A stretch of DNA of 64,000 bases from Candidatus Woesebacteria bacterium (GTDB lineage Bacteria > Patescibacteriota > Microgenomatia > UBA1406 > HO2-37-13b): assembly GCA_018062135.1 (NCBI GenBank), contig JAGOSW010000001.1:73521-137520 (forward strand), read 5' to 3'. This document shows positions 797 through 57,728 of the stretch, piece by piece (the stretch's first letter is position 1; each line of letters starts with the position of its first letter). The position numbers and the translations under genes are program-made. A model generated the notes under the pieces. That model saw nothing but the letters and a program-made list of their open reading frames with translations. It searched no databases and had not been told where the DNA came from.

Positions 797-1942
797 ATGG
801 GTAAATTCTTTATTATCTTTTTTCTCTATCATCTTTTTCGAGCCTTCTTTATCGGAGTTACGACGCCACCTGTAGAAGGAGATAGCCTTGCATATCACAT
901 TCCAATTGCGCAAGAAATGTGGAATGGTGGACTTTTCCACCCAAAAGATATTCTTCATTTTTATCCAAGTGTCGGCGAAGCGATTCTTTCCATTTTTTAC
1001 CTCTTCCACATTCCTGCAAACATTTTCAATGTTGTAGGAACAATCTTATTGTTTCTTGCTACGAGAATTCTTGGGAAACAATCAGGTCTTAAGAATGAAT
1101 TGCCAACAATCTTTGCAGTTGCAGTATGTTTGCTGCCAATAACACTTCGATGGATTAATACCCAAGTAATAGATGTATGGCTCGCAATATTTTTTGTATG
1201 GAGTTTAGTTCTCCTTCAGAAGCCTAAAAAATCTGCAAAGTATTATCTGCTATTGGGTACGTCGCTTGGATTACTAATAGGAATAAAAAATTCTGGACCA
1301 GTCTTCGCAGCACTACTTTTAGTAGTGTATTGGGAAAAGATTAAGAGATATCTGCAACCGAAGAACGTATTTAATTTTGCTATTCCAGTAAGTATCCTTG
1401 GCATATTTTGGTATGTGCGTAATGTATTTTTAGTAGGTAATCCTTTGTACCCTCAAGCAGTTCTAGGACTTAAAGGCGCTCCGAATTGGGATATTCTTAA
1501 ATGGCGCGTTGGAGAAATTGCGATATGGTATCCGGATAAAATATTTAATGCATTAATTAGCGAATACATGGTTTGGAGTATTGCGGTTATAGTGCCATTA
1601 ATATTTATCAGATATGTTCACGATAATAGTGATATTAGAAAACTATTACTAATAGGCTATGCAAATCTATTATTCTTCTTGTTCCTACCGACGTCCCCAG
1701 AATACAGCATTATTGTTTCTAGTTTTCGTTATGCCTACCCAATGATAATTCCATTGATGTTAGTGACATTTTTTATCCTGCAAAGAATAAAGAAAGAAAA
1801 AATTATCATGCTACTTTCGTTAGCAAATATACTGTTCTTGCCAGGATATGAATATCAACCTAAGCTGCTTTTTATTTTTCTAGTAGGAGTCTTGTTATAC
1901 TTTCATAAGCATGACAAAGCTACCAACAACAGCGTCTTCTAA
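797..1942 (+). CDS. Polytopic membrane protein, candidate GT-C (ArnT/PMT-like) glycosyltransferase
   Basis: 381 aa with more than 10 predicted TM segments, overall resembling GT-C/ArnT-PMT-type membrane glycosyltransferases by eye. No specific catalytic motif was identified. Confidence 0.4.
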   Translation: MGKFFIIFFLYHLFRAFFIGVTTPPVEGDSLAYHIPIAQEMWNGGLFHPKDILHFYPSVGEAILSIFYLFHIPANIFNVVGTILLFLATRILGKQSGLKNELPTIFAVAVCLLPITLRWINTQVIDVWLAIFFVWSLVLLQKPKKSAKYYLLLGTSLGLLIGIKNSGPVFAALLLVVYWEKIKRYLQPKNVFNFAIPVSILGIFWYVRNVFLVGNPLYPQAVLGLKGAPNWDILKWRVGEIAIWYPDKIFNALISEYMVWSIAVIVPLIFIRYVHDNSDIRKLLLIGYANLLFFLFLPTSPEYSIIVSSFRYAYPMIIPLMLVTFFILQRIKKEKIIMLLSLANILFLPGYEYQPKLLFIFLVGVLLYFHKHDKATNNSVF

Positions 1943-2024
1943 ATCAATCTATAAAAATCAGTTTGTGGAAATAAAAGTAGACACCCTCTCACTTGATGGA
2001 AATTCTTCGGAATATTCAATAACA

Positions 2025-2687
2025 TTATAGCCAATCGATAGGGGCGATATTATGTTTGGCGAGATATTCGTTGCATTGACTAAAGTGATGATTGTTGTAA
2101 AAAAGTGAGACGGAATATGGTGAAGGATGGGCGGATGTCAGGACAAGATTTTCTTCTCGATCAATAACTTCTCCTTTTTTCTGTGCGTATTTTCCCCAGA
2201 GCATGTAGACAATATTCTTGCGGTCTTTATTAAGTGCGCCAATAACTGCATCGGTAAAAACTTCCCAACCTTTTCCTGCATGAGAAGCGGGTTTGCTTGC
2301 AAGAACGGTTAAGACACTGTTTAACATAAGAACGCCTTGGCTTGCCCAGCGAGTGAGATCTCCGGAAGGCAGTGGGTCAATATGTAAGTCATTGCGAATT
2401 TCTTGATAGATGTTTTTTAATGAGGGAGGAAGGCTAACGCCGTCATTGACGGAAAATGAGAGGCCATTTGCTTGTCCTTTTCCATGGTATGGATCTTGGC
2501 CGACGATAACTACTTTTACTTTATCGAATGGGCAAAGGTCGAAAGCGCGAAATACATTGGAGGATGGAGGGTAAACAGTATCTGAAAGATATTGTGAGCG
2601 AATTGTATCAGTAAGGGTATGCCAATAGGGTTTTTCAAATTCTTCTGAGAGGGCTTCTTTCCATGTGGGATCAATTTTTACGTCCAT
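2025..2687 (-). CDS. ung: Uracil-DNA glycosylase, family 1
   Basis: Motifs 'GQDPYHG', 'LLLN-like MLNSVLTV' and 'HPSPYS', with typical length of 220 aa. Confidence 0.95.
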   Translation of the reverse strand: MDVKIDPTWKEALSEEFEKPYWHTLTDTIRSQYLSDTVYPPSSNVFRAFDLCPFDKVKVVIVGQDPYHGKGQANGLSFSVNDGVSLPPSLKNIYQEIRNDLHIDPLPSGDLTRWASQGVLMLNSVLTVLASKPASHAGKGWEVFTDAVIGALNKDRKNIVYMLWGKYAQKKGEVIDREENLVLTSAHPSPYSVSLFYNNHHFSQCNEYLAKHNIAPIDWL

Positions 2688-2729
2688 AAGTTTTATAAGT
2701 AGATTTTATCATCTTATGAAGAAAAGAGC

Positions 2730-2759
2730 GGGCCCCCTCCGACGTATCGGAGGGGGCCC
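2730..2759 (-). terminator. GC-clamp hairpin terminator downstream of the GC-rich ORF
   Basis: GGGCCCCCTCCGA-cgta-TCGGAGGGGGCCC is a perfect 13-bp stem. On the minus strand it is followed by gctcttttctt. Confidence 0.6.
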
Positions 2760-2785
2760 TGCGTTGCGCGACGAGCCGAGTTGGC

Positions 2786-3328
2786 TCACCAAGGTCTGTT
2801 TGTACCGACTTCTGCCAGGAAGATCTTGACGGAATCCTGGGGGACGAGCTGTCCGGCGTATACTCCACGACCATCGGCTGACCTGAAGTACACCAGCAGA
2901 AGCGTCACACCGTCAACTTGGGTCTTGTAGGTTACCCATCGACCCATGATCCCAATTCGATACTCGTTGTTTGGACCAATGATGACGCTGCGACCACCAT
3001 AGTCAATGTCGTATCTGTACAACACGCCATTGTAGGTAAGGTTGTCTGGAATGAGCCCAGTCCACGATGGAGCCGATTCTGGGTCGATTTTCCGCATGAG
3101 GCGAATCTCGTCCAGCTCGCTTTTGCCGCCTTCGCCAAACTCATATCCAAGCCCAAGATAGTCCCATTCCCGTCGAGGCCCCAGTCCATAGATTCGATCA
3201 ATGAGCCTTGCTTCATCATCTTCGTCGAAGACTAATTCGACTTCTGTGATGAACGTCGCTGACTGCTCAGCATGGACGACGGCGACCATGCCTGCGTACC
3301 CATCGGTGATGGGAACATCGATGACCAT
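2786..3328 (-). CDS. Hypothetical protein (180 aa) encoded by a compositionally foreign, GC-rich ORF
   Basis: Long ORF with a GGAG Shine-Dalgarno 10 nt upstream. The sample line 3061-3120 has 35/60 G+C against 21/60 in native line 9421-9480. I recognise no motif. Confidence 0.7.
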   Translation of the reverse strand: MVIDVPITDGYAGMVAVVHAEQSATFITEVELVFDEDDEARLIDRIYGLGPRREWDYLGLGYEFGEGGKSELDEIRLMRKIDPESAPSWTGLIPDNLTYNGVLYRYDIDYGGRSVIIGPNNEYRIGIMGRWVTYKTQVDGVTLLLVYFRSADGRGVYAGQLVPQDSVKIFLAEVGTNRPW

Positions 3329-3384
3329 CTTTTTAGCACTCCAATCTTGTGTAGGTGCGCGCGAACGAAGCCTATATTATACCA
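3329..3384 (-). promoter_or_regulatory. Extended -10 promoter (TGGTATAAT, -10 at 3376-3381) plus about 40-nt leader with GGAG (3339-3342)
   Basis: Read on the minus strand: tttggTATAATataggcttcgttcgcgcgcacctacacaagattGGAGtgctaaaaagATG. Confidence 0.55.
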
Positions 3385-3435
3385 AACTATAGGTTATTCT
3401 TCTAACCTGAGCGCGCAAATTAGTATAATAGTCAC

Positions 3436-4491
3436 ATGAATCTTGCAGATTTTGATTACGAGCTACCACCAAGCCATATTGCAAACCAACCAACATTTCC
3501 GCGTGATGCTTCAAAATTAATGCTTATCAATAGAAAAACAAATGAGATTTCACATCATATATTTAAGGAATTGCCCGAACTCCTGGATAAAAACACCCTT
3601 CTTGTTCTTAACGATACTCGCGTGTATCCGGCACGAATTTATGGAAAAAAATCCACCGGTGGAAAAGTTGAGATGTTGCTTGTTAAGAAATTGGAAAATA
3701 ATATGTGGGAAGCTTTGACGAAACCTGGTCTTAGTGAGGGGACCATCGTGGATTTTGGTGAATTTACAATCGAAGTAATCGAAAAGCGAGAACGAACGTC
3801 ATTGATAAAACCAAATATTTCTGAAGATGAATTTTACAAAATTCTAGAAAAAACAGGCTCAATTCCCATTCCTCCCTATATTCATTCATCACTTTCAAGA
3901 GACGAATTAAAAGAAAAATACCAAACAGTATATGCAAATGAAACAGGATCAGCAGCTGCCCCAACAGCAGGATTGCATTTTACTTCTGAAGTATTTGAGG
4001 CATTACGGAAGAAAGGTATTGAAGTTGTATCGCTTACTTTACATGTCGGATTAGGAACCTTTGCACCAATTGATGATGAGAAGATAAAAGAAGGCAAGCT
4101 TCATGCTGAATATTTTGAAATCACAAAAGAAGAAGCAGAGAAAATTAATGCAGCAAAAAAATCTGGAAAGAAAATTATATCCGTCGGAACGACGACTCTT
4201 CGTGCATTAGAATCGGCGACTGATGATAATGGTTTATTGCAGCCTTTTATGGGCGAAACGACAATATTTATTAAACCGGGCTATTCGTTTCGCATGGTCG
4301 ATGGATTAATAACGAATTTTCATCTTCCAAAATCATCATTGCTTATGTTGGTATCGGCATTTTCCAGCTTTCCAAACACAGATGTTATTTTTACTGATTT
4401 TTCTCACAACGTAATTGGAAAAGCATATGAGAAAGCAATAGAAAATGACTATCGCTTTTTTTCGTTCGGCGATGCAACATTAGTACTATGA
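3436..4491 (+). CDS. queA: S-adenosylmethionine:tRNA ribosyltransferase-isomerase
   Basis: N-terminus 'LADFDYELPPSHIANQP', plus 'GSAAAPTAGLHF' and 'VGTTTLRALES' are typical of QueA. Confidence 0.95.
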   Translation: MNLADFDYELPPSHIANQPTFPRDASKLMLINRKTNEISHHIFKELPELLDKNTLLVLNDTRVYPARIYGKKSTGGKVEMLLVKKLENNMWEALTKPGLSEGTIVDFGEFTIEVIEKRERTSLIKPNISEDEFYKILEKTGSIPIPPYIHSSLSRDELKEKYQTVYANETGSAAAPTAGLHFTSEVFEALRKKGIEVVSLTLHVGLGTFAPIDDEKIKEGKLHAEYFEITKEEAEKINAAKKSGKKIISVGTTTLRALESATDDNGLLQPFMGETTIFIKPGYSFRMVDGLITNFHLPKSSLLMLVSAFSSFPNTDVIFTDFSHNVIGKAYEKAIENDYRFFSFGDATLVL

Positions 4492-5858
4492 AGAAACATT
4501 GGCATTGGATAGTTTTGGGAATTTCTATTCTCAGTTATGTTGTTGTTTTATCTTGGCTCTCAATTCTTCGTCATAATGCATTTGCGTCCGGTCTTGATCT
4601 GGGAAACATGGATCAAACAGTGTGGAATGGACTGCATGGAAGACCCTTTTCATTAACCTATGAAGGATTTAATCAACTTCGTTTTGCAGCTCACGCGGAT
4701 TTTTTTCTTATTCTCCTGAGCCCTCTGTATGTATTATGGAATAGCCCCCACACGCTTAATGTATTCGAGTCGCTATATCTTGGTCTAGGAGCTATACCAG
4801 TTTTTCTCATCGCGCGGCATCTGTTGAAAGATGTAAAACTCGCGCTCCTTTTTTCGGCAATCTATTTATTAAGTCCAGTGACGCAATGGATTGATATCTT
4901 TGATTTCCATTCTGTGTCATTTGCAGTTCCTTCATTACTTTTAGCATACTACTTTGTTCTGAAAAAGCAGTGGGGTTGGTATGGCATATCAATTTTTCTT
5001 GCTCTGCTTACGAAAGAACATATAGGTCTGCAAGTTGCAGTTTTGGGACTCATTATTGCGTTGGTTCATAAAGAAAAAAAGATGGGAGTTACCACATGCT
5101 TTTTAGGAAGTCTGTGGTTTTTTGTCATGGTCTTTGTAATTCTTCCACAGTTTAGTCTATCGGGAGAACACTGGGCATTTGCCTGGTATGATTTTGGCGC
5201 GAATATGATTAATCGCGTATTCTTTGATTCCGAGATTCGCGCATATTATGTATTGGTTCTAAAATCATTTGGCTTTCTGCCTCTACTTGGTCTTCCTTGG
5301 CTTATTCTGACGGCCCCAGATTTAGCAATAAACGTTCTTAGTTCTCATGCAGAAATGCATTCGATTAAATATCACTACACCAGCGGTCTTGTTCCTGGTC
5401 TTATGATCGCAGCGATATATGGCATGCTATTTGTAAAAAAGTTTGTAAGATTCCCAGTGGTTTCTTATGTAATTATGTTAGGTGCTTTGCTTATTGTTCT
5501 CCGTGTGAATTACCATTTCAGTCCTCTCCCAACGACTGAGTCATGTTGGTGCCAAAGTTATGAAGTCTCAGCAGATGACAAAGAATTTGAAAAAGTTCTG
5601 CAAAGTATTCCTACTTCTGCATCGGTAACGTCTTCGACAGAATTGCATGCCCATGTAACGCATCGCGAATTTGCCTATATGTTGCCGCACGCAACAGAAT
5701 CAGCAGACTTTATTGCGCTTATCGATCAGCATCGCGTTATCGATAACTATGGTCCGAAGCAATATGAATTGGACTTAGTTAAAAAACTTAATGAAGAAAA
5801 AAACTATGTGTTAGAAAAACACATCGGCCACTTCTATTTATATAAAAGATTGCAGTGA
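4488..5858 (+). CDS. DUF2079-family integral membrane protein
   Basis: Polytopic protein with 'GLDLGNMDQTVWN' near the N-terminus, characteristic of DUF2079. Its start overlaps the queA stop by 4 nt. Confidence 0.7.
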   Translation: MKKHWHWIVLGISILSYVVVLSWLSILRHNAFASGLDLGNMDQTVWNGLHGRPFSLTYEGFNQLRFAAHADFFLILLSPLYVLWNSPHTLNVFESLYLGLGAIPVFLIARHLLKDVKLALLFSAIYLLSPVTQWIDIFDFHSVSFAVPSLLLAYYFVLKKQWGWYGISIFLALLTKEHIGLQVAVLGLIIALVHKEKKMGVTTCFLGSLWFFVMVFVILPQFSLSGEHWAFAWYDFGANMINRVFFDSEIRAYYVLVLKSFGFLPLLGLPWLILTAPDLAINVLSSHAEMHSIKYHYTSGLVPGLMIAAIYGMLFVKKFVRFPVVSYVIMLGALLIVLRVNYHFSPLPTTESCWCQSYEVSADDKEFEKVLQSIPTSASVTSSTELHAHVTHREFAYMLPHATESADFIALIDQHRVIDNYGPKQYELDLVKKLNEEKNYVLEKHIGHFYLYKRLQ

Positions 5859-9032: not shown

Positions 9033-9407
9033 TTACTCACCAAAACCTCGGTCGTTGTCCATATCGTTTCCTCCCATGGAATTACCCATGTCAGAGTTGT
9101 TATCATCACGGTTTCCACCGCGATTATCTCCACCTCCGAAACGATTTTCACGAGGTTGTTGAGGTCGTGCATCACTTACGGTGATTGGACGTCCATCAAA
9201 GTCTTGTCCATTAAATTGGTCTTTAGCTTGATTTGCTTCTTCTTCAGAAGACATTTCAACGAAACCAAATCCTTTTGATTTTCCTGTGTATTTATCGGTT
9301 ATGACTGTTGCTGAGACGACTGTTCCTACTTGTGCAAAATGATTTCTCAATGCATCTTCGGTAGTGCCCCAAGAAAGTCCCCCGACGAATAATTTACTTG
9401 CTGCCAT
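9033..9407 (-). CDS. RRM-domain RNA-binding protein with Gly/Asn/Asp-rich tail
   Basis: RNP2 'LFVGGL' and RNP1 'KGFGFVEM'. Confidence 0.9.
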
Positions 9408-9528
9408 TAATCTTTCACCTCTCTTTCTGAAAAACGTGTGTATTTCTGTCGATCAATGCAATATTCATTTGTGGGGAATTATGATTGTCTTTTAAACAGA
9501 AGAACATATATTTAACACGTATATAGAT

Positions 9529-9556
9529 ATTATATCTGGGAAATAAGAAGTGTCAA
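9529..9556 (-). promoter_or_regulatory. Sigma70-type promoter TTGACA-16-TATAAT for the RRM gene, with a 5' UTR of about 110 nt
   Basis: Minus-strand TTGACA at 9556-9551 and TATAAT at 9534-9529. Confidence 0.6.
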
Positions 9557-9565
9557 GAGAAGAGT

Positions 9566-9607
9566 GAGATCGTCCCCCCGGCTTGTCGCCGGGGGGACGG
9601 TGATCTC
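9566..9607 (-). terminator. Long GC hairpin downstream of the GC-rich 165-aa ORF
   Basis: GAGATC-GTCCCCCCGGC-ttgtc-GCCGGGGGGAC-ggt-GATCTC. Confidence 0.6.
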
Positions 9608-9631
9608 GCACCGAACAGATGGTGGTGGCCG

Positions 9632-10129
9632 TCAGGCCGCCATGGGCGTCGAGTTCGGCAGGAACAACGGCGCGTCCTCGTCCGCGATCACGGCCTCGCT
9701 GTTGACGAAGCAGATGGCGCGACAGGACTCGATCGACGCGGCGCCGATGACTTCGTCCCAGGCCGAGGGCAGTCCGCTGACGCCACACGCCAAACGATGT
9801 CGGAAGACCCCGCCTGAGTACAAGACGTCTCCGTCCATGAGTAGGTGCGGGTAGAACCGCACGAGCTCGCGGGTGTCGCACTGCTCGCGCCAGGCCTCGA
9901 AGGCCTTCTGACGAGCGATCTCGACGTACTCCTTGCCCTCCGGGATCGCGCCGACGGTGACCTCGAAGAGGATGCGCGGCTCGAAGAGGGGCGAGGAAGG
10001 GTCGATCAGGACGACGTGGATGGCCTCCCGGCCTCCGGTCAAGTTGTTGGCCACGAAGCTGTCCAGCAGTGGCTGCGCCACGAGCCGAACGGCCTCCTCG
10101 GCCTGCTCCCTGTACAGGAAATGGGTCAT
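9632..10129 (-). CDS. GC-rich ORF, GlcG/HbpS (DUF336)-like putative haem-binding protein
   Basis: The segment 'GGVFRHRLACGVSGLPSAWDEVIGAASI' resembles the GlcG core 'GG.....GA.GVSG....QD...A'. Line 9661-9720 has 40/60 G+C. Confidence 0.6.
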   Translation of the reverse strand: MTHFLYREQAEEAVRLVAQPLLDSFVANNLTGGREAIHVVLIDPSSPLFEPRILFEVTVGAIPEGKEYVEIARQKAFEAWREQCDTRELVRFYPHLLMDGDVLYSGGVFRHRLACGVSGLPSAWDEVIGAASIESCRAICFVNSEAVIADEDAPLFLPNSTPMAA

Positions 10130-10246
10130 CGGTTTTTGCCTGTGCCTTTCTGTCTAGTGATTGTGAGGTGCGAGAAACAAGCCACTATTATACCTCAAAA
10201 GTTCAAGGAAATCAATATTATAGGACGTGTATGAGCTCAAGGTCAA
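10130..10246 (-). promoter_or_regulatory. Two candidate promoters and a leader for the 165-aa ORF
   Basis: Minus-strand TTGACC (10246-10241), 18 nt, TATAAT (10222-10217). A second GGTATAAT has its -10 at 10192-10187. GAAAGG lies upstream of the ATG. Confidence 0.5.
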
Positions 10247-10340
10247 TCCAGTTTGAGCATCGTGTAAAACTTCCTACACGTTTTATACCCATAATGGGCC
10301 ATATAGTGGGTCAATTTTTGCAAGGAGTTTCAAAGTGTAG

Positions 10341-10547
10341 TTAAGGAGTTGCTGAGAATAGAAGTGAGCCGCGGCGGTTGCCTGCCTCAACCTCAGCGCC
10401 AGGGGCATTGAGTCCGGCCTGGGCCGTCTCGACGGCATCGTCGAGCATCTCGTCAGGGTCCGTCAGCGGTTCATTCCCCGCAGCGGAAATTGCGGCAAAG
10501 AGTTCGTCAATCTCTGCTACGATAAGGCGTCTTCTTCGTCCGGGCAT
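10341..10547 (-). CDS. GC-rich ORF, small acidic protein (68 aa)
   Basis: Line 10381-10440 has 42/60 G+C. The product is Asp/Glu/Ala-rich after an N-terminal RRRR. No motif recognised. Confidence 0.5.
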   Translation of the reverse strand: MPGRRRRLIVAEIDELFAAISAAGNEPLTDPDEMLDDAVETAQAGLNAPGAEVEAGNRRGSLLFSATP

Positions 10548-10584
10548 GTCGCTCTACTTTCTACTGAAAACGACCGAATATCAG

Positions 10585-10598
10585 GTTACTATTGTAAC
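10585..10598. promoter_or_regulatory. Palindrome GTTAC-tatt-GTAAC overlapping the TACAAT -10 (10591-10596, minus) of the 68-aa ORF
   Basis: Inverted repeat read directly from the sequence. It sits between divergent promoters. Confidence 0.35.
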
Positions 10599-10631
10599 AC
10601 GGAGGTCTTTGAGGTGAGTATAATAAGATTT

Positions 10632-19145: not shown

Positions 19146-20915
19146 ATGAAATTTAAAGAACTTGCTGAATACTTTCACAAAATAGAACAAACTGCTTCGC
19201 GTAACGAAATGACGCAGATTCTTGCGGATCTATTTAATGAAATCCAGGTGGATGAGTTTGATAAGGTACTCTATTTGCTTCAAGGGAGACTCGCCCCACA
19301 ATATGTAAAAATCGATTTTGGGTTGGGAGAGAAAATGGTTGTAAGGGCGGCTACTGAAGCGCTGCAGCTTGATAAGAAGCTCTTTTTTGAGAGGTTTCAA
19401 CGGGAGGGCGATGCAGGTCGGGCTGTTGAGTATTTTAAAAAGACTATTGTCAGCATGCATGAGCGCGACATGACAATTACAGAAGTGTTTAACAAGTTAG
19501 AGGAATTAGCGAAATCAGGGGGCGAAGGTTCGCAAGAAAGAAAACTATCGATTTTAGCGGAGCTTATTCAAACCCTTGATGGACTGTCCGCAAGATTTGT
19601 CGTACGCATACCAACAAATACACTACGATTAGGCTTCTCTGATATGACAATTCTTGATGCATTTTCATGGATGTTAAAGGGAGATAAAAGCCTCCGGCCG
19701 GCAATTGAAGCGGCTTACCTGGTGCGGCCGGACCTCGGTTATATTGGCGTTACGCTAAAGAAAAGCGGCGAAAAAGGCGTAACGCATGTGACGCCGACTG
19801 TATTTACTCCTATTTTAATGATGCGCGCGCAGCGCGTCGGCGTTATTGACGAAATTTTCGACAAAATACAAGATGGCCTTGTGGAGCCAAAATATGATGG
19901 TTTTCGTCTACAAATTCATAAAAAAGGCGAAAAGGTAACACTTTTTTCGCGCGGACTTGAAGATGTGACATATATGTATCCCGATATTGTAGCGGGGATT
20001 CAAAAAGAAATAAAAGCGGACGCTGCGATTATCGAAGGTGAAGCCATTGGCTTCGATCCCTATACAGGCAGTTTTCTTCCCTTTCAAGAAACGGTCCAAC
20101 GTAAACGAAAATATAATATTGATGAAAAAGCGCTCGAAATCCCTTTACGTATGTTTGTCTTCGAGCTCCTCCATTGCGACGGCGATTCTCTTCTTACAGA
20201 ACCGCTTCATGTGCGGCTAGATAAGCTTCGATCCATCACAAAATTAACAGGAGACATATTCAAAGACACACTAATTCTCTCGATACAGGACATTTTAAAT
20301 GATAAAGAACATCTGGAAATAACTTTTGACGATGCGCTTTCTAAAGGTCTTGAAGGCCTCATGATTAAAAAAAGCGACGGTCTTTATAAGCCAGGCGCTC
20401 GCGGATTTAACTGGATTAAATATAAGCGAAGCCAATCGACAAAAATTGATGACACGATTGATTGCGTCGTAATGGGTTATGACAAGGGAAAAGGAAAGCG
20501 CACAGGATTTGGCATTGGCGCATTTTTGGTAGGTATTTATGATAAAAAAAAGGATATGTTTGAAACAGTCGCAAAAATAGGTACAGGTCTTTCTGACGAT
20601 GAATGGCGAGAAATGCATGAACGATGCAGTAAAATTATCAGCGATCATAAACCCGCTCTATATGATGTTGATACAATGATGAATGTTGATGTGTGGGTTC
20701 TTCCAAACATTGTCGTAGAAATTAAAGCAGATGAAATTACTCGCTCATCAGTTCATACTGCGGGTCGCTTATTAAAAGAATCAAAATCAGGAAAAGCATT
20801 TGATGTTGATGAACCTGGGTATGCTCTACGTTTTCCTCGACTCACACGTTTTCGCGATGATAAAAAACCTGAGGATGCCACCACAATTAAAGAAGTCAAA
20901 GAATTAGTCCGTTAG
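19146..20915 (+). CDS. ATP-dependent DNA ligase, three-domain Lig1/archaeal-like
   Basis: Adenylation motif I 'EPKYDGFRLQIH', plus an N-terminal DNA-binding domain and a C-terminal OB domain ('RFPRLTRFRDDK'). Confidence 0.9.
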   Translation: MKFKELAEYFHKIEQTASRNEMTQILADLFNEIQVDEFDKVLYLLQGRLAPQYVKIDFGLGEKMVVRAATEALQLDKKLFFERFQREGDAGRAVEYFKKTIVSMHERDMTITEVFNKLEELAKSGGEGSQERKLSILAELIQTLDGLSARFVVRIPTNTLRLGFSDMTILDAFSWMLKGDKSLRPAIEAAYLVRPDLGYIGVTLKKSGEKGVTHVTPTVFTPILMMRAQRVGVIDEIFDKIQDGLVEPKYDGFRLQIHKKGEKVTLFSRGLEDVTYMYPDIVAGIQKEIKADAAIIEGEAIGFDPYTGSFLPFQETVQRKRKYNIDEKALEIPLRMFVFELLHCDGDSLLTEPLHVRLDKLRSITKLTGDIFKDTLILSIQDILNDKEHLEITFDDALSKGLEGLMIKKSDGLYKPGARGFNWIKYKRSQSTKIDDTIDCVVMGYDKGKGKRTGFGIGAFLVGIYDKKKDMFETVAKIGTGLSDDEWREMHERCSKIISDHKPALYDVDTMMNVDVWVLPNIVVEIKADEITRSSVHTAGRLLKESKSGKAFDVDEPGYALRFPRLTRFRDDKKPEDATTIKEVKELVR

Positions 20916-53891: not shown

Positions 53892-53944
53892 AATTAAGAA
53901 AATATTAAGCGGTTGAGCGTAGCATATATTGAACTTAAAGTGTG

Positions 53945-54027
<83 letters not shown>

Positions 54028-56282: not shown

Positions 56283-57728
56283 ATGTCAAAGCAATACAGA
56301 CCACCAGTTGTTGTCGTATTAGGCCATGTTGATCATGGAAAGACGACTTTGCTCGACTATATCCGCAAAACAACAGTAACAGCACGCGAAGCGGGCGGCA
56401 TTACCCAGTCTATTGGTGCGTACGAGGCAGAAACAGCGATTAAAGGCTACCATACAAACAAAATTACCTTCATTGATACTCCAGGCCATGAGGCCTTCAC
56501 AAAGCTCCGCATGCGCGGCGCGCAGGCAGCAGATATCGCTATTCTGATCGTTGACGCAACTTCTTCTGTAATGCCGCAGACAATTGAGTCAATAACGCAT
56601 ATTCAACAAGCTGAAATCCCATTTATCGTCGCCATGAATAAAATTGACCTGCAAACGGCGAATTCTTCGCGCGTAAAGCAGGACCTCGCAAAGCATGGCG
56701 TTCAGGTAGAAGGTTTTGGCGGAACAGTCACAGAAGTCGAAATATCCGCAAAAACAGGCGCAGGAATTAACGATTTATTAGAAGGTGTCTTATACATAGC
56801 CTCAGAAAAGAATCTTACATATGATGACGCTGCAGATCTCGACGCTTTTGTTATAGAAACCCGCCAAGAAAAATCAGGCATAACGGCCTCATGTATCATA
56901 AAAAATGGTGTGCTTCGTGTTGGCGAAACCGTATATGCAGGTTCAAAAGAAGCAAAAATTAGATCACTCATGTCAGACAAAGGTGCACTTGTTAAAGAAG
57001 TCCGACCTTCAATGCCATTTATATTGTCTGGGTTTAAAGAAACACCAGATGTCGGTGTTCTTCTCTCGCGAGTACGTCCTGAACATGTAGATGAAGTAAA
57101 AGAAGCAGCGGTTGATCATGATTTTGCTGGTTTTTTTGAAGAAGAAGGAAAGAAGCTTCATCTCATTATTAAGGCTGATTCTCAAGGTGTTCTCGATGCC
57201 CTACTTCCAAGTCTTGAAAAAAGTGAGTCTATAAATATTGTTTTCTCAGGAATTGGCGATCTTACAAACTCCGACGTATTTTTAGCTAAGGTTTCTAAGG
57301 CGGTGGTCATAGGATTTAATGTAAAACCGACGAAGCAAATCGAGTATGTTGCGCGTCAAGAAAAGGTAGTCATAAAGACCTATAATATAATCTATAAACT
57401 CTTAGAAGAGCTTCATGAGGTTTCAGATTTACTTAAAGAGCGTGAGGACAAGGAAAAGTCCTTCAAAGGTGAGGCAAAAATTACTACCATCTTTACTATT
57501 GATGGAAGTAAAATCGCAGGCGTTAAAGTCATTAAAGGCCGTCTTGACGTGCACGATCGCGTTGAGGTCTTCAGAGAAAATCGTTCACAAGGAGAATCCG
57601 TACTCACTACCATTAAACAGCGCGCCAAGACAGTCAAAGAAGTAAAGAAAGATGATGAGGCTGGGCTCCTTTTTGACCCCCAACTTGACATAATGCAGGG
57701 TGATGTGATAAAATCTTATAGTATATGA
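56283..57728 (+). CDS. infB: Translation initiation factor IF-2, short form starting at the G domain
   Basis: '[20 protein letters not shown]', 'DTPGHEAF' and 'NKID'. Confidence 0.95.

Follow-up and report, generated by a model that had tools for sequence, protein, structure and literature searches.

A GC-rich gene between ung and queA of a Candidatus Woesebacteria genome is probably a lineage-resident, exchangeable allele cassette

Genes whose base composition departs from that of their genome are routinely taken as recent horizontal transfers, and a GC-rich island in an AT-rich genome often turns out to be a structured RNA. Phage morons are autonomous promoter-gene-terminator units of deviant base composition in prophages. 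An integron cassette is built differently, with an attC site 3′ of a promoterless ORF and with IntI and attI nearby. Minimal mobile elements of Neisseria are cassettes exchanged by recombination between conserved flanking genes (PMC3787668, PMC3082526).

The sequence analyzed here, referred to as the window, is a stretch of 64,000 nucleotides from a Candidatus Woesebacteria bacterium (assembly GCA_018062135.1, contig JAGOSW010000001.1, positions 73,521 to 137,520). Runs containing the sequence are wastewater, sludge, and freshwater metagenomes. Also encoded in the window are a short IF-2 (481 aa), an ATP-dependent DNA ligase, NusA, and LeuRS, along with several large proteins that match nothing in Pfam; this content would fit a deep-branching, probably Patescibacteria-like organism. 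An initial annotation, made from the letters of the window alone, had described a GC-rich ORF between ung and queA as a foreign coding sequence under local expression signals. The features of this locus, hereafter island 1, are as follows.

2716 to 3349, minus strand: putative exchangeable allele cassette of 634 nt, covering the ORF with its 3′ UTR and terminator stem, plus the part of the leader nearest to the SD sequence
2786 to 3328, minus strand: ORF of 180 aa, a member of a small lineage-restricted family of 176-197-aa proteins predicted to be all-beta
2718 to 2759, minus strand: predicted intrinsic terminator with a 13-bp GC-clamp stem (2730-2759), a 4-nt loop, and a T-rich tail, GCTCTTTTCTTC
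3329 to 3369, minus strand: 5′ leader of about 41 nt with the SD sequence GGAG (3339-3342) and the conserved motif GCTTCGTTCGCGCGCACCTACACAA (about 3345-3369)
3376 to 3405, minus strand: predicted promoter with a -35-like TTAGAA (3405-3400), an 18-nt spacer, and the extended -10 TGGTATAAT (3384-3376)
3395 to 3384, minus strand: near-palindrome AACCTATAGTTT inside the 18-nt promoter spacer
3411 to 3438, plus strand: divergent queA promoter as read from the sequence, with GCGCGC (3411-3416), TATAAT (3424-3429), and a leaderless ATG (3436)

Among described systems, the closest concepts are the minimal mobile elements of Neisseria and moron-like units, from which this locus differs in being allelic, persistently GC-rich, and RNA-structured. 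As in minimal mobile elements, a variable segment lies between conserved genes and near-identical strains carry different versions of it; there is no integrase, tRNA site, or direct repeat, and exchange would proceed via homologous recombination in the flanks. Here, however, the versions are deeply diverged alleles of a single family in place of unrelated genes, exchange affects the ORF and terminator alone and leaves the promoter and leader in position, and all alleles are persistently GC-rich. The resemblance to a moron lies in a lone gene that carries a sigma-70-type promoter and a factor-independent terminator of its own, in its deviant composition, and in its unrelated neighbors. In contrast to a moron, the locus lies in no prophage (the neighbors are ung, queA, and membrane proteins) and has no PHROG match or viral carrier, and the unit of ORF 2786-3328 appears to be ancient in the lineage, not an add-on. 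An integron cassette is also an exchangeable unit in which a small ORF of unknown function is followed by an inverted-repeat element, but this locus has a dedicated promoter of its own and is single, not arrayed; in place of an attC it has, on the 3′ side, a perfect hairpin of 13 bp followed by a T tail, as in a terminator, and no integrase is present among its neighbors. Finally, a classical genomic island is recognized by a nearby integrase, a tRNA or tmRNA gene with direct repeats, and a presence/absence polymorphism, none of which was seen at island 1. The genes called within about 5 kb (QueA, UDG, EamA, HAD, DUF4202, and hypotheticals) include no integrase or recombinase, no tRNA lies within 50 kb (the sole tRNA of the window is at 53944-54027), and the repeat search gave no significant direct repeat flanking ORF 2786-3328. 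The initial annotation had likewise reported no integrase, flanking direct repeat, or tRNA attachment site. No empty site was seen either, as all relatives with the queA neighborhood hold a family member there.

The compositional anomaly itself is real. The G+C content of the window is 39.7% (standard deviation of 3.8% across 500-nt windows), and 634-nt windows exceed 50% at two regions only, that of ORF 2786-3328 and 9300-10600. This ORF has a G+C content of 52.9%, with GC1, GC2, and GC3 of 0.61, 0.40, and 0.58, and the cassette at 2716-3349 reaches 53.9%, compared with 41% and 37% in its flanks. GC3 ranges from 0.23 to 0.41 in all 56 other long ORFs of the window, with the exception of ORF 9632-10129. 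When the genes of the window itself are used as the reference, the codon-adaptation z-score of ORF 2786-3328 is -5.1, and its product is Arg-rich and Lys-poor, with an R/(R+K) of 0.76 versus a native mean of 0.37. The contrast drawn in the initial annotation was thus borne out, since G+C, GC3, and codon adaptation are all outliers on recount and the sliding-window and codon analyses place the ORF outside the distribution of the window's genes. Its hand counts (35 of 60 nucleotides G+C at 3061-3120 and 21 of 60 at 9421-9480) were exactly reproduced, as were its coordinates for the GCGCGC blocks, TGGTATAAT, GGAG, and the hairpin.

Homologs of the ORF occupy the same place in related genomes. In L003, the closest genome in a species-representative collection (QueA 88% and UDG 93% identical), a 179-aa ORF of 57.6% G+C lies between ung and queA in the same orientation and encodes a 44% identical homolog. 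The family gene also adjoins queA in L070, L072, L073, and L083, and is divergent from queA in the first three of these. A metagenome scan with QueA added one further close relative only, L083; the nearest QueA outside the lineage is <50% identical. An exhaustive HMMER search of 1.84 billion representative proteins returned only a small family of 176-197 aa from similar low-GC genomes, with no homolog in GC-rich organisms. Word-index searches of 5.8 billion proteins found the query alone, and the family profile added two members; the family came to light only in the exhaustive HMMER search. About ten members are sampled overall, with three alleles within the species. Long HMMER matches (1000-3000 aa, with many short stretches) were Ig-like, RCC1, TPR, or BACON repeat proteins and were rejected as summed weak repeat matches, not homologs. 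Neighbors on the family contigs include queA, DUF2079, an RRM protein, MsrB, MgtE, and PMT_2, among others. Candidate operon partners in L071 and L082 proved to be merely tandem paralogs, and no partner gene was found for ORF 2786-3328. As for a viral reservoir, no family member was found in a scan of viral proteins and no viral contig carries the gene.

The elevated G+C is shared by the family. In eight of the 10 loci, the family members lie 13-21 GC points above background (52-59% versus 39-40% G+C, with GC3 of 0.58-0.83), and the two loci with backgrounds of 47-49% G+C show no contrast. The GC richness persists even among members only 26-45% identical, with no sign of amelioration. Given GC-rich homologs at the same locus and no GC-rich donor, the anomaly is therefore read as an old, maintained property of a resident family.

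The expression signals reported in the initial annotation (an extended -10, a GGAG-bearing leader of about 40 nt, and a terminator with a GC clamp) were all recovered in place. GGAG at 3342-3339 lies 10 nt ahead of the ATG (3328). A terminator scan found a stem of 13 pairs (11 G-C), a loop of 4 nt, and, on the minus strand, the tail GCTCTTTTCT; with a GC stem-loop and a T tract right after it, ORF 2786-3328 is predicted to end in a rho-independent terminator. Each family locus ends in a perfect GC hairpin whose sequence varies by allele class, which points to compensatory stem changes, and the hairpin is near-identical between related alleles of distant species. At the other end of the unit, the leader is kept through the SD sequence in L072, L083, and L003 and is still recognizable in L070, L073, L080, and L081. 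The sequence ACCTATAGTTTGGTATAAT is found only once in the window. The motif AACCTATAGTTTGGTATAAT, consisting of the spacer near-palindrome followed by the extended -10, lies upstream of the family gene in nine distant loci, and a degenerate form of the promoter motif occurs once in each of 14 family loci, directly upstream of the family gene, versus none of 149 other loci. The motif accompanies the gene where the neighbors differ (L074, L080, and L081). Promoter and leader are thus family-specific and travel with the gene, and the view that a foreign gene had borrowed local signals does not hold. Matches to the promoter motif were also seen 14 times in viral contigs, where neither a family gene nor a rise in G+C accompanies them, and were discarded as chance. 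The intergenic promoter region at 3363-3462 is 96-98% identical even to L003, exceeding the coding flanks in conservation, and the queA promoter is conserved along with this shared region. We infer that the near-palindrome is a putative operator or repressor site of a dedicated regulator that would bind AACCTATAGgTT. The two GCGCGC blocks at 3357-3362 and 3411-3416 had been suggested to pair; predicted start sites put them on separate transcripts and they are absent from L070 and L073, and pairing is not supported. Pairing between the leader and the 3′ UTR of island 1 comprises only 7 bp, interrupted by a bulge, and shows no clear conservation; we make no claim for it.

Comparison of closely related strains suggests how the variation arises. 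Three strains with flanks 96-100% identical carry alleles only 32-44% identical in protein. Between the window and L072, DNA identity is 96-100% up to about position 2724 and again from about 3345, and 40-70% between. When a contig with the window allele is aligned to L083, both flanks match, 675 nt are skipped, and 634 nt of its own lie between; the cassette of the window is therefore placed at about 2716-3349. One breakpoint lies at the Shine-Dalgarno sequence and the other immediately beyond the terminator, so that the ORF, 3′ UTR, and terminator stem are exchanged and the locus retains its promoter, its T tail, and most of its leader. These breakpoints coincide with the compositional limits drawn in the initial annotation, at the hairpin at 2730 and near the start codon. 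The QueA of L072 is 98% identical to that of the window, whereas its family protein is 44% identical to the window's and 69% to that of L003. L083, with a 97% identical QueA, carries a third allele, 32% identical to the window's and 48% to that of L070; the QueA of L070 is only 65-66% identical. Consistently, between the window and L072 the dS of queA is 0.058, compared with a cassette dS of 1.53 and dN of 0.51, and between L003 and L072 the relation is reversed (dS of 0.92 for queA and 0.45 for the cassette), which makes the cassette younger than its flanks. Pairwise cassette identities are discordant with QueA identities in general. The breakpoints and the discordant dS point to recombination at the cassette, and the pattern indicates allele replacement by recombination in the conserved flanks; old alleles are retained within a species and also shared with others. 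In none of the four runs examined did an alternative allele occur alongside that of the window.

The second GC-rich region of the window, island 2, is organized similarly.

9561 to 10187 (9561 to 10160 in a narrower delimitation), minus strand: island 2 cassette, with an ORF, a GC hairpin at 9571-9599, and a leader with a related motif
9632 to 10129, minus strand: ORF of 165 aa, 65.9% G+C, GC3 of 0.89, with a weak HbpS/GlcG-like match
10162 to 10175 and 9604 to 9617: inverted repeat between the leader and the 3′ UTR

A 9-nt perfect complement between its leader and 3′ UTR (TCTCGCACC and GGTGCGAGA) is conserved in four loci. The leaders of islands 1 and 2 align locally over 26 nt (shuffle P of about 0.0015), and the two protein families are unrelated. 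A three-way MAFFT alignment of three island upstream regions gave no common leader, and a search for fixed-spacing leader patterns had no success because of indels. At island 2, identity between L163 and the window is 100% across the terminator, 3′ UTR, promoter, leader, and the first 36 codons but drops to 65-80% along a stretch of about 400 nt in the CDS, which makes an intragenic mosaic. The 98 nucleotide differences in the CDS are distributed over third (46), first (31), and second (21) codon positions, with 31 synonymous codon changes and no adenine bias. By the distribution of these differences, the mosaic appears to be imported old divergence and not DGR-type mutagenesis, and island 2 behaves like island 1 as an exchangeable cassette.

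The sequence of the 180-aa product is constrained. Codon periodicity, a dN/dS of 0.35 against L003 in which change is greatest at third positions, and twelve residues kept invariant among family members as low as 26% identical together indicate purifying selection on a real protein. Homology and structure searches, which the initial annotation had proposed, found no domain above threshold and yielded a confident fold when an alignment was supplied. With a nine-sequence family alignment, AF2 predicts an all-beta protein of 13 strands in two halves (pLDDT 89.4, pTM 0.84), compared with a pLDDT of 32 for the single sequence. A Foldseek search of this model against PDB and BFVD gave no neighbor (best TM 0.25), a profile search of PDB sequences gave no match, and in PADLOC, PHROG, NCBIfam, and Pfam the protein has no match above threshold. 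Three of 11 family members match DUF4178 (PF13785) through their C-terminal half, at DUF4178 positions of about 49-136 (E-values of 0.0014-0.02, 15-19 bits); the best of these, at 19.3 bits (E = 0.0014), lies below the Pfam gathering threshold of 25 bits, and the window protein itself has no match. Remote homology to DUF4178 is possible. Descriptions of DUF4178 go no further than a predicted intracellular, beta-rich protein encoded in operons of the PspA/polyamine type (PMC11237479). The family is similar to it in size and in being all-beta, but no PspA, DUF350, or polyamine genes occur in the family's genomic context. By inspection, the protein has no signal peptide or membrane segment, which suggests a cytoplasmic location. 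It might be an intracellular specificity determinant in conflict, such as phage or mobile-element defense, toxin immunity, or host interaction; this is our best guess at a function, though less likely than not.

The transcripts of these genes are predicted to be unusually structured; a search of RNA runs recovered island 1 in none of them. Compared with dinucleotide shuffles, the full transcripts fold at z = -6.2 (island 1) and z = -4.5 (island 2), and the predicted full-transcript structures pair the leader with the 3′ UTR. All 13 island CDSs, from both families, have negative folding z-scores. Under dinucleotide shuffling, the island CDS means are -2.2 and -2.6, versus -0.2 for 21 native genes (P = 9×10−5). 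Under synonymous-codon permutation, a control that keeps the protein, the codon usage, and GC3, the island CDS mean is -2.30, versus -0.37 for the 21 native genes (P = 4×10−5). ORF 2786-3328 itself shows only weak excess structure by codon permutation (z = -0.94), so the RNA-structure signal is a family-level one. We infer that the GC richness may be kept by selection for structured, stable mRNA, possibly helped by GC-biased gene conversion where recombination is concentrated in a hot spot.

Several other explanations were weighed against allele exchange. The simplest would be an assembly chimera of the DNA of two organisms, which would account for the compositional jump and nothing else. The order queA-ORF-ung is identical in two independent assemblies, the Logan assembly of the SRA run and the NCBI metagenome assembly; a single 7.5-kb contig at 48x depth has zero differences over window positions 1500-5000; and island pieces on contigs of other wastewater and sludge studies also have zero differences, while queA has scattered SNPs. 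The junctions are therefore real and the island is stable within the strain. As the same architecture is also present in related genomes, we give a chimera virtually no credence, and the check on positions 2700-3450 called for in the initial annotation comes out in favor of a genuine locus. If the junctions are genuine, the strong deviation in G+C, GC3, and codon usage, the Arg-rich and Lys-poor product, and the sharp compositional boundaries are what one would expect from a recent horizontal import of a single foreign gene from a GC-rich donor under local expression signals. This was the reading of the initial annotation, which had also held that GC-rich orthologs common to the lineage would count against it; such orthologs are what was found. 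The ung-queA site was compared across relatives as it had suggested, and the site is occupied by a homolog, without a pattern of insert and empty site. Equally GC-rich homologs sit at the same place in related species, the exhaustive HMMER search yields members from similar low-GC genomes only, the promoter and leader are family-specific and not borrowed, and members 26-45% identical show no amelioration, all of which makes a recent import improbable. What survives of the foreign coding sequence is that the history of the coding segment differs from that of its flanks and signals; an island from a GC-rich donor is contradicted by the positional GC-rich homologs. Divergence confined to one segment could alternatively reflect targeted hypermutation, e.g., by a diversity-generating retroelement, and a reverse transcriptase and bAvd pair does lie 8 kb from the family locus of L080. 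A DGR variable protein, however, is accompanied by a nearby reverse transcriptase and template repeat and varies at adenines, and this is not the situation here. No reverse transcriptase is among the genes called within about 5 kb, the island is invariant in independent samples of one strain in which queA shows SNPs, the allele differences at island 2 fall on all codon positions, many of them synonymous and without adenine bias, and the divergence covers the terminator too, with clean breakpoints. Hypermutation is accordingly regarded as very unlikely, and allele exchange through the flanks remains the preferred account of the variation.

The origin of the GC richness is a separate matter. It could follow incidentally from GC-biased gene conversion, without selection on RNA or protein, if the locus is an extreme hot spot of recombination; the other anatomy would be unchanged. 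The locus does recombine, as shown by cassette replacement, and island 2 is an intragenic mosaic; furthermore, GC1, GC2, and GC3 are all raised and amino acid usage is shifted as mutation or fixation pressure predicts. However, little heteroduplex would form inside the cassette when alleles 40-70% identical are swapped whole, the flanks in which recombination takes place show no GC enrichment (41% and 37%), the members in genomes of 47-49% G+C show no contrast, and excess mRNA structure under codon permutation is not predicted. Gene conversion as the whole cause is therefore considered doubtful, though a good deal less so than recent import. The same folding scores (z = -6.2 and -4.5 for the full transcripts, with excess structure in the CDSs) and the several overlapping ORFs in the islands are compatible with a structured noncoding RNA, of which the 180-codon ORF would be a by-product of the few stop codons in GC-rich DNA. 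Against this, codon periodicity is clear (GC1/GC2/GC3 of 0.61/0.40/0.58 in island 1 and 0.65/0.43/0.89 in island 2), dN/dS amounts to 0.35 and change is greatest at third positions, the family is alignable to 26% identity with invariant residues, the nine-sequence alignment gives a confident fold, and no Rfam match was found even at permissive thresholds (the best, rnk_leader, is at chance level with E = 0.44). A noncoding RNA is thus highly improbable. The GC richness of this protein-coding gene may come from selection on the structure of its mRNA or from biased gene conversion.

Taken as a whole, the locus is probably a self-contained transcription unit resident in the lineage, in which the ORF and terminator are swapped as an allele cassette, rather than a foreign gene inserted once. 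Expression of a 180-aa cytoplasmic all-beta protein would be driven by a family-specific promoter, whose near-palindrome resembles an operator, and by a leader with an SD sequence, and the unit would close at the GC-clamp intrinsic terminator. Promoter and leader would stay fixed at the locus while the ORF and terminator (about 2716-3349) are replaced as a cassette, by homologous recombination through the flanks, with ung to one side and, to the other, queA together with the shared promoter. In this way, alleles that are deeply diverged would persist in one species and pass between species. Such persistence and passage of diverged alleles carries the signature of diversifying or frequency-dependent selection, and the gene looks like an arms-race gene.

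A broader reading is more speculative, and we consider it unlikely, about on a par with gene conversion: the lineage may keep a small regulon of “armored” modules, with selection at the mRNA level and proteins swapped as conflict specificity alleles. At least two unrelated families would belong to it, one DUF4178-like and one HbpS/GlcG-like, and they would share a common leader motif, GC-clamp 3′ ends, leader/3′-UTR complementarity, and CDSs 13-26 GC points above the genome. Selection would act on the mRNA for extreme structure, stability, or resistance to AU-directed RNases, and the encoded proteins would be swapped between strains in conflict with phages, competitors, or the host cell. If true, this would be a new coupling of RNA-level composition to an arms-race locus.

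These results bear on how compositional outliers are read. The shortcut from compositional outlier to recent transfer fails here, and something else must keep the G+C of such genes 13-21 points higher than in the AT-biased genome around them. Should the RNA-structure signal be real, it becomes a testable idea that mRNA architecture, and not donor ancestry, sets base composition at the level of a gene. The work also defines a family, an uncharacterized protein with a confident predicted fold and without a solved relative. The locus itself offers a compact, mappable case in which allele cassettes are exchanged while the regulatory signals stay fixed, in a wastewater bacterium that is uncultivated and probably ultra-small.

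A second GC-rich single-gene cassette, designated island 2, is present in the window, and it is a stronger case than island 1, the GC-rich gene between ung and queA. The features of this region are as follows.

9033-9407, minus strand: gene for an RRM RNA-binding protein
9561-10187, minus strand: island 2, with its ORF at 9632-10129
9571-9599: GC hairpin of island 2
9604-9617 and 10162-10175: 14-nt inverted repeat in the 3' UTR and leader of island 2, flanking the ORF
10219-10234 and 10272-10287: inverted repeat near the AT-rich block
10277-10316: AT-rich block of 40 nt between islands 2 and 3
10341-10547, minus strand: island 3, a third small GC-rich ORF (68 aa)

The island-2 ORF encodes 165 aa and has a GC content of 65.9%, a GC3 of 0.89 and a codon-adaptation z of -9.8. 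The cassette has a promoter of its own, and its leader motif is related to that of island 1. A homologue occupies the same position in the related locus L003 (22% identity, E 3e-12), and when locus L163 was compared with the window, island 2 was found to be mosaic within the species. The member of the island-2 family in L073 matches PF03928 (HbpS/GlcG; E 0.0038), which weakly suggests from sequence that the island-2 protein is HbpS/GlcG-like.

The arms of the inverted repeat around the ORF are 86% complementary, with a perfect core of 9 nt (TCTCGCACC/GGTGCGAGA), and the repeat is kept in L003, L073 and L163. In the fold predicted by RNAfold, the island-2 transcript has its two ends paired with each other. 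The repeat could serve mRNA end-pairing, or it could be a site of recombination or inversion.

Island 3 has its own promoter, of TACAAT type. Its product contains no lysine and has a GARP z of +5.9, and a search for a family match to the 68 aa found none; compared with L003, the N-terminal 40 residues are conserved and the C-terminus has diverged. The AT-rich block matches L003 at 97% identity, and the intergenic DNA around it is poorly conserved. In the 80-nt stretch just upstream of the RRM gene (9407-9486), identity to L003 reaches 100%, the adjoining coding DNA being 90-97% identical, and this conservation may reflect a 5' UTR or regulatory element.

Related genomes that carry homologues of the island-1 gene ("family genes") show the following features.

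L071:7-1008 and L082:86-1252: two tandem paralogues of the island-1 family, an apparent operon
L073:10620-11169: YafQ/RelB toxin-antitoxin pair, next to the family gene
L074:3596-4465, minus strand: ORF of 289 aa (GC 60.9%, GC3 0.72)
L080:17899-19349: reverse transcriptase (RVT_1) and adjoining bAvd gene, a diversity-generating retroelement

The tandem genes, in genomes of 47-49% GC, show no GC enrichment over their surroundings. In L073, ung is replaced by the YafQ/RelB pair, and PIN and PemK/MazE modules occur at the L074 and L080 loci. The L080 retroelement lies 8 kb from the family gene, with no sign that it targets it. Separately, the public contig L083 begins (1-17) with an Illumina adapter remnant still in the assembly, GTGTGCTCTTCCGATCT.

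Three further window genes fit an ultra-small, deep-branching bacterium.

19146-20915: ATP-dependent DNA ligase of archaeal/eukaryotic type, 589 aa
30920-34843: 1307-aa protein without a Pfam match
56283-57728: short IF-2, 481 aa

The GC-rich 289-aa ORF of L074, which has no Pfam match, sits at the island-2/3 position, with MsrB on one side and the RRM gene on the other; these sites are thus also used by GC-rich cassettes of other families.
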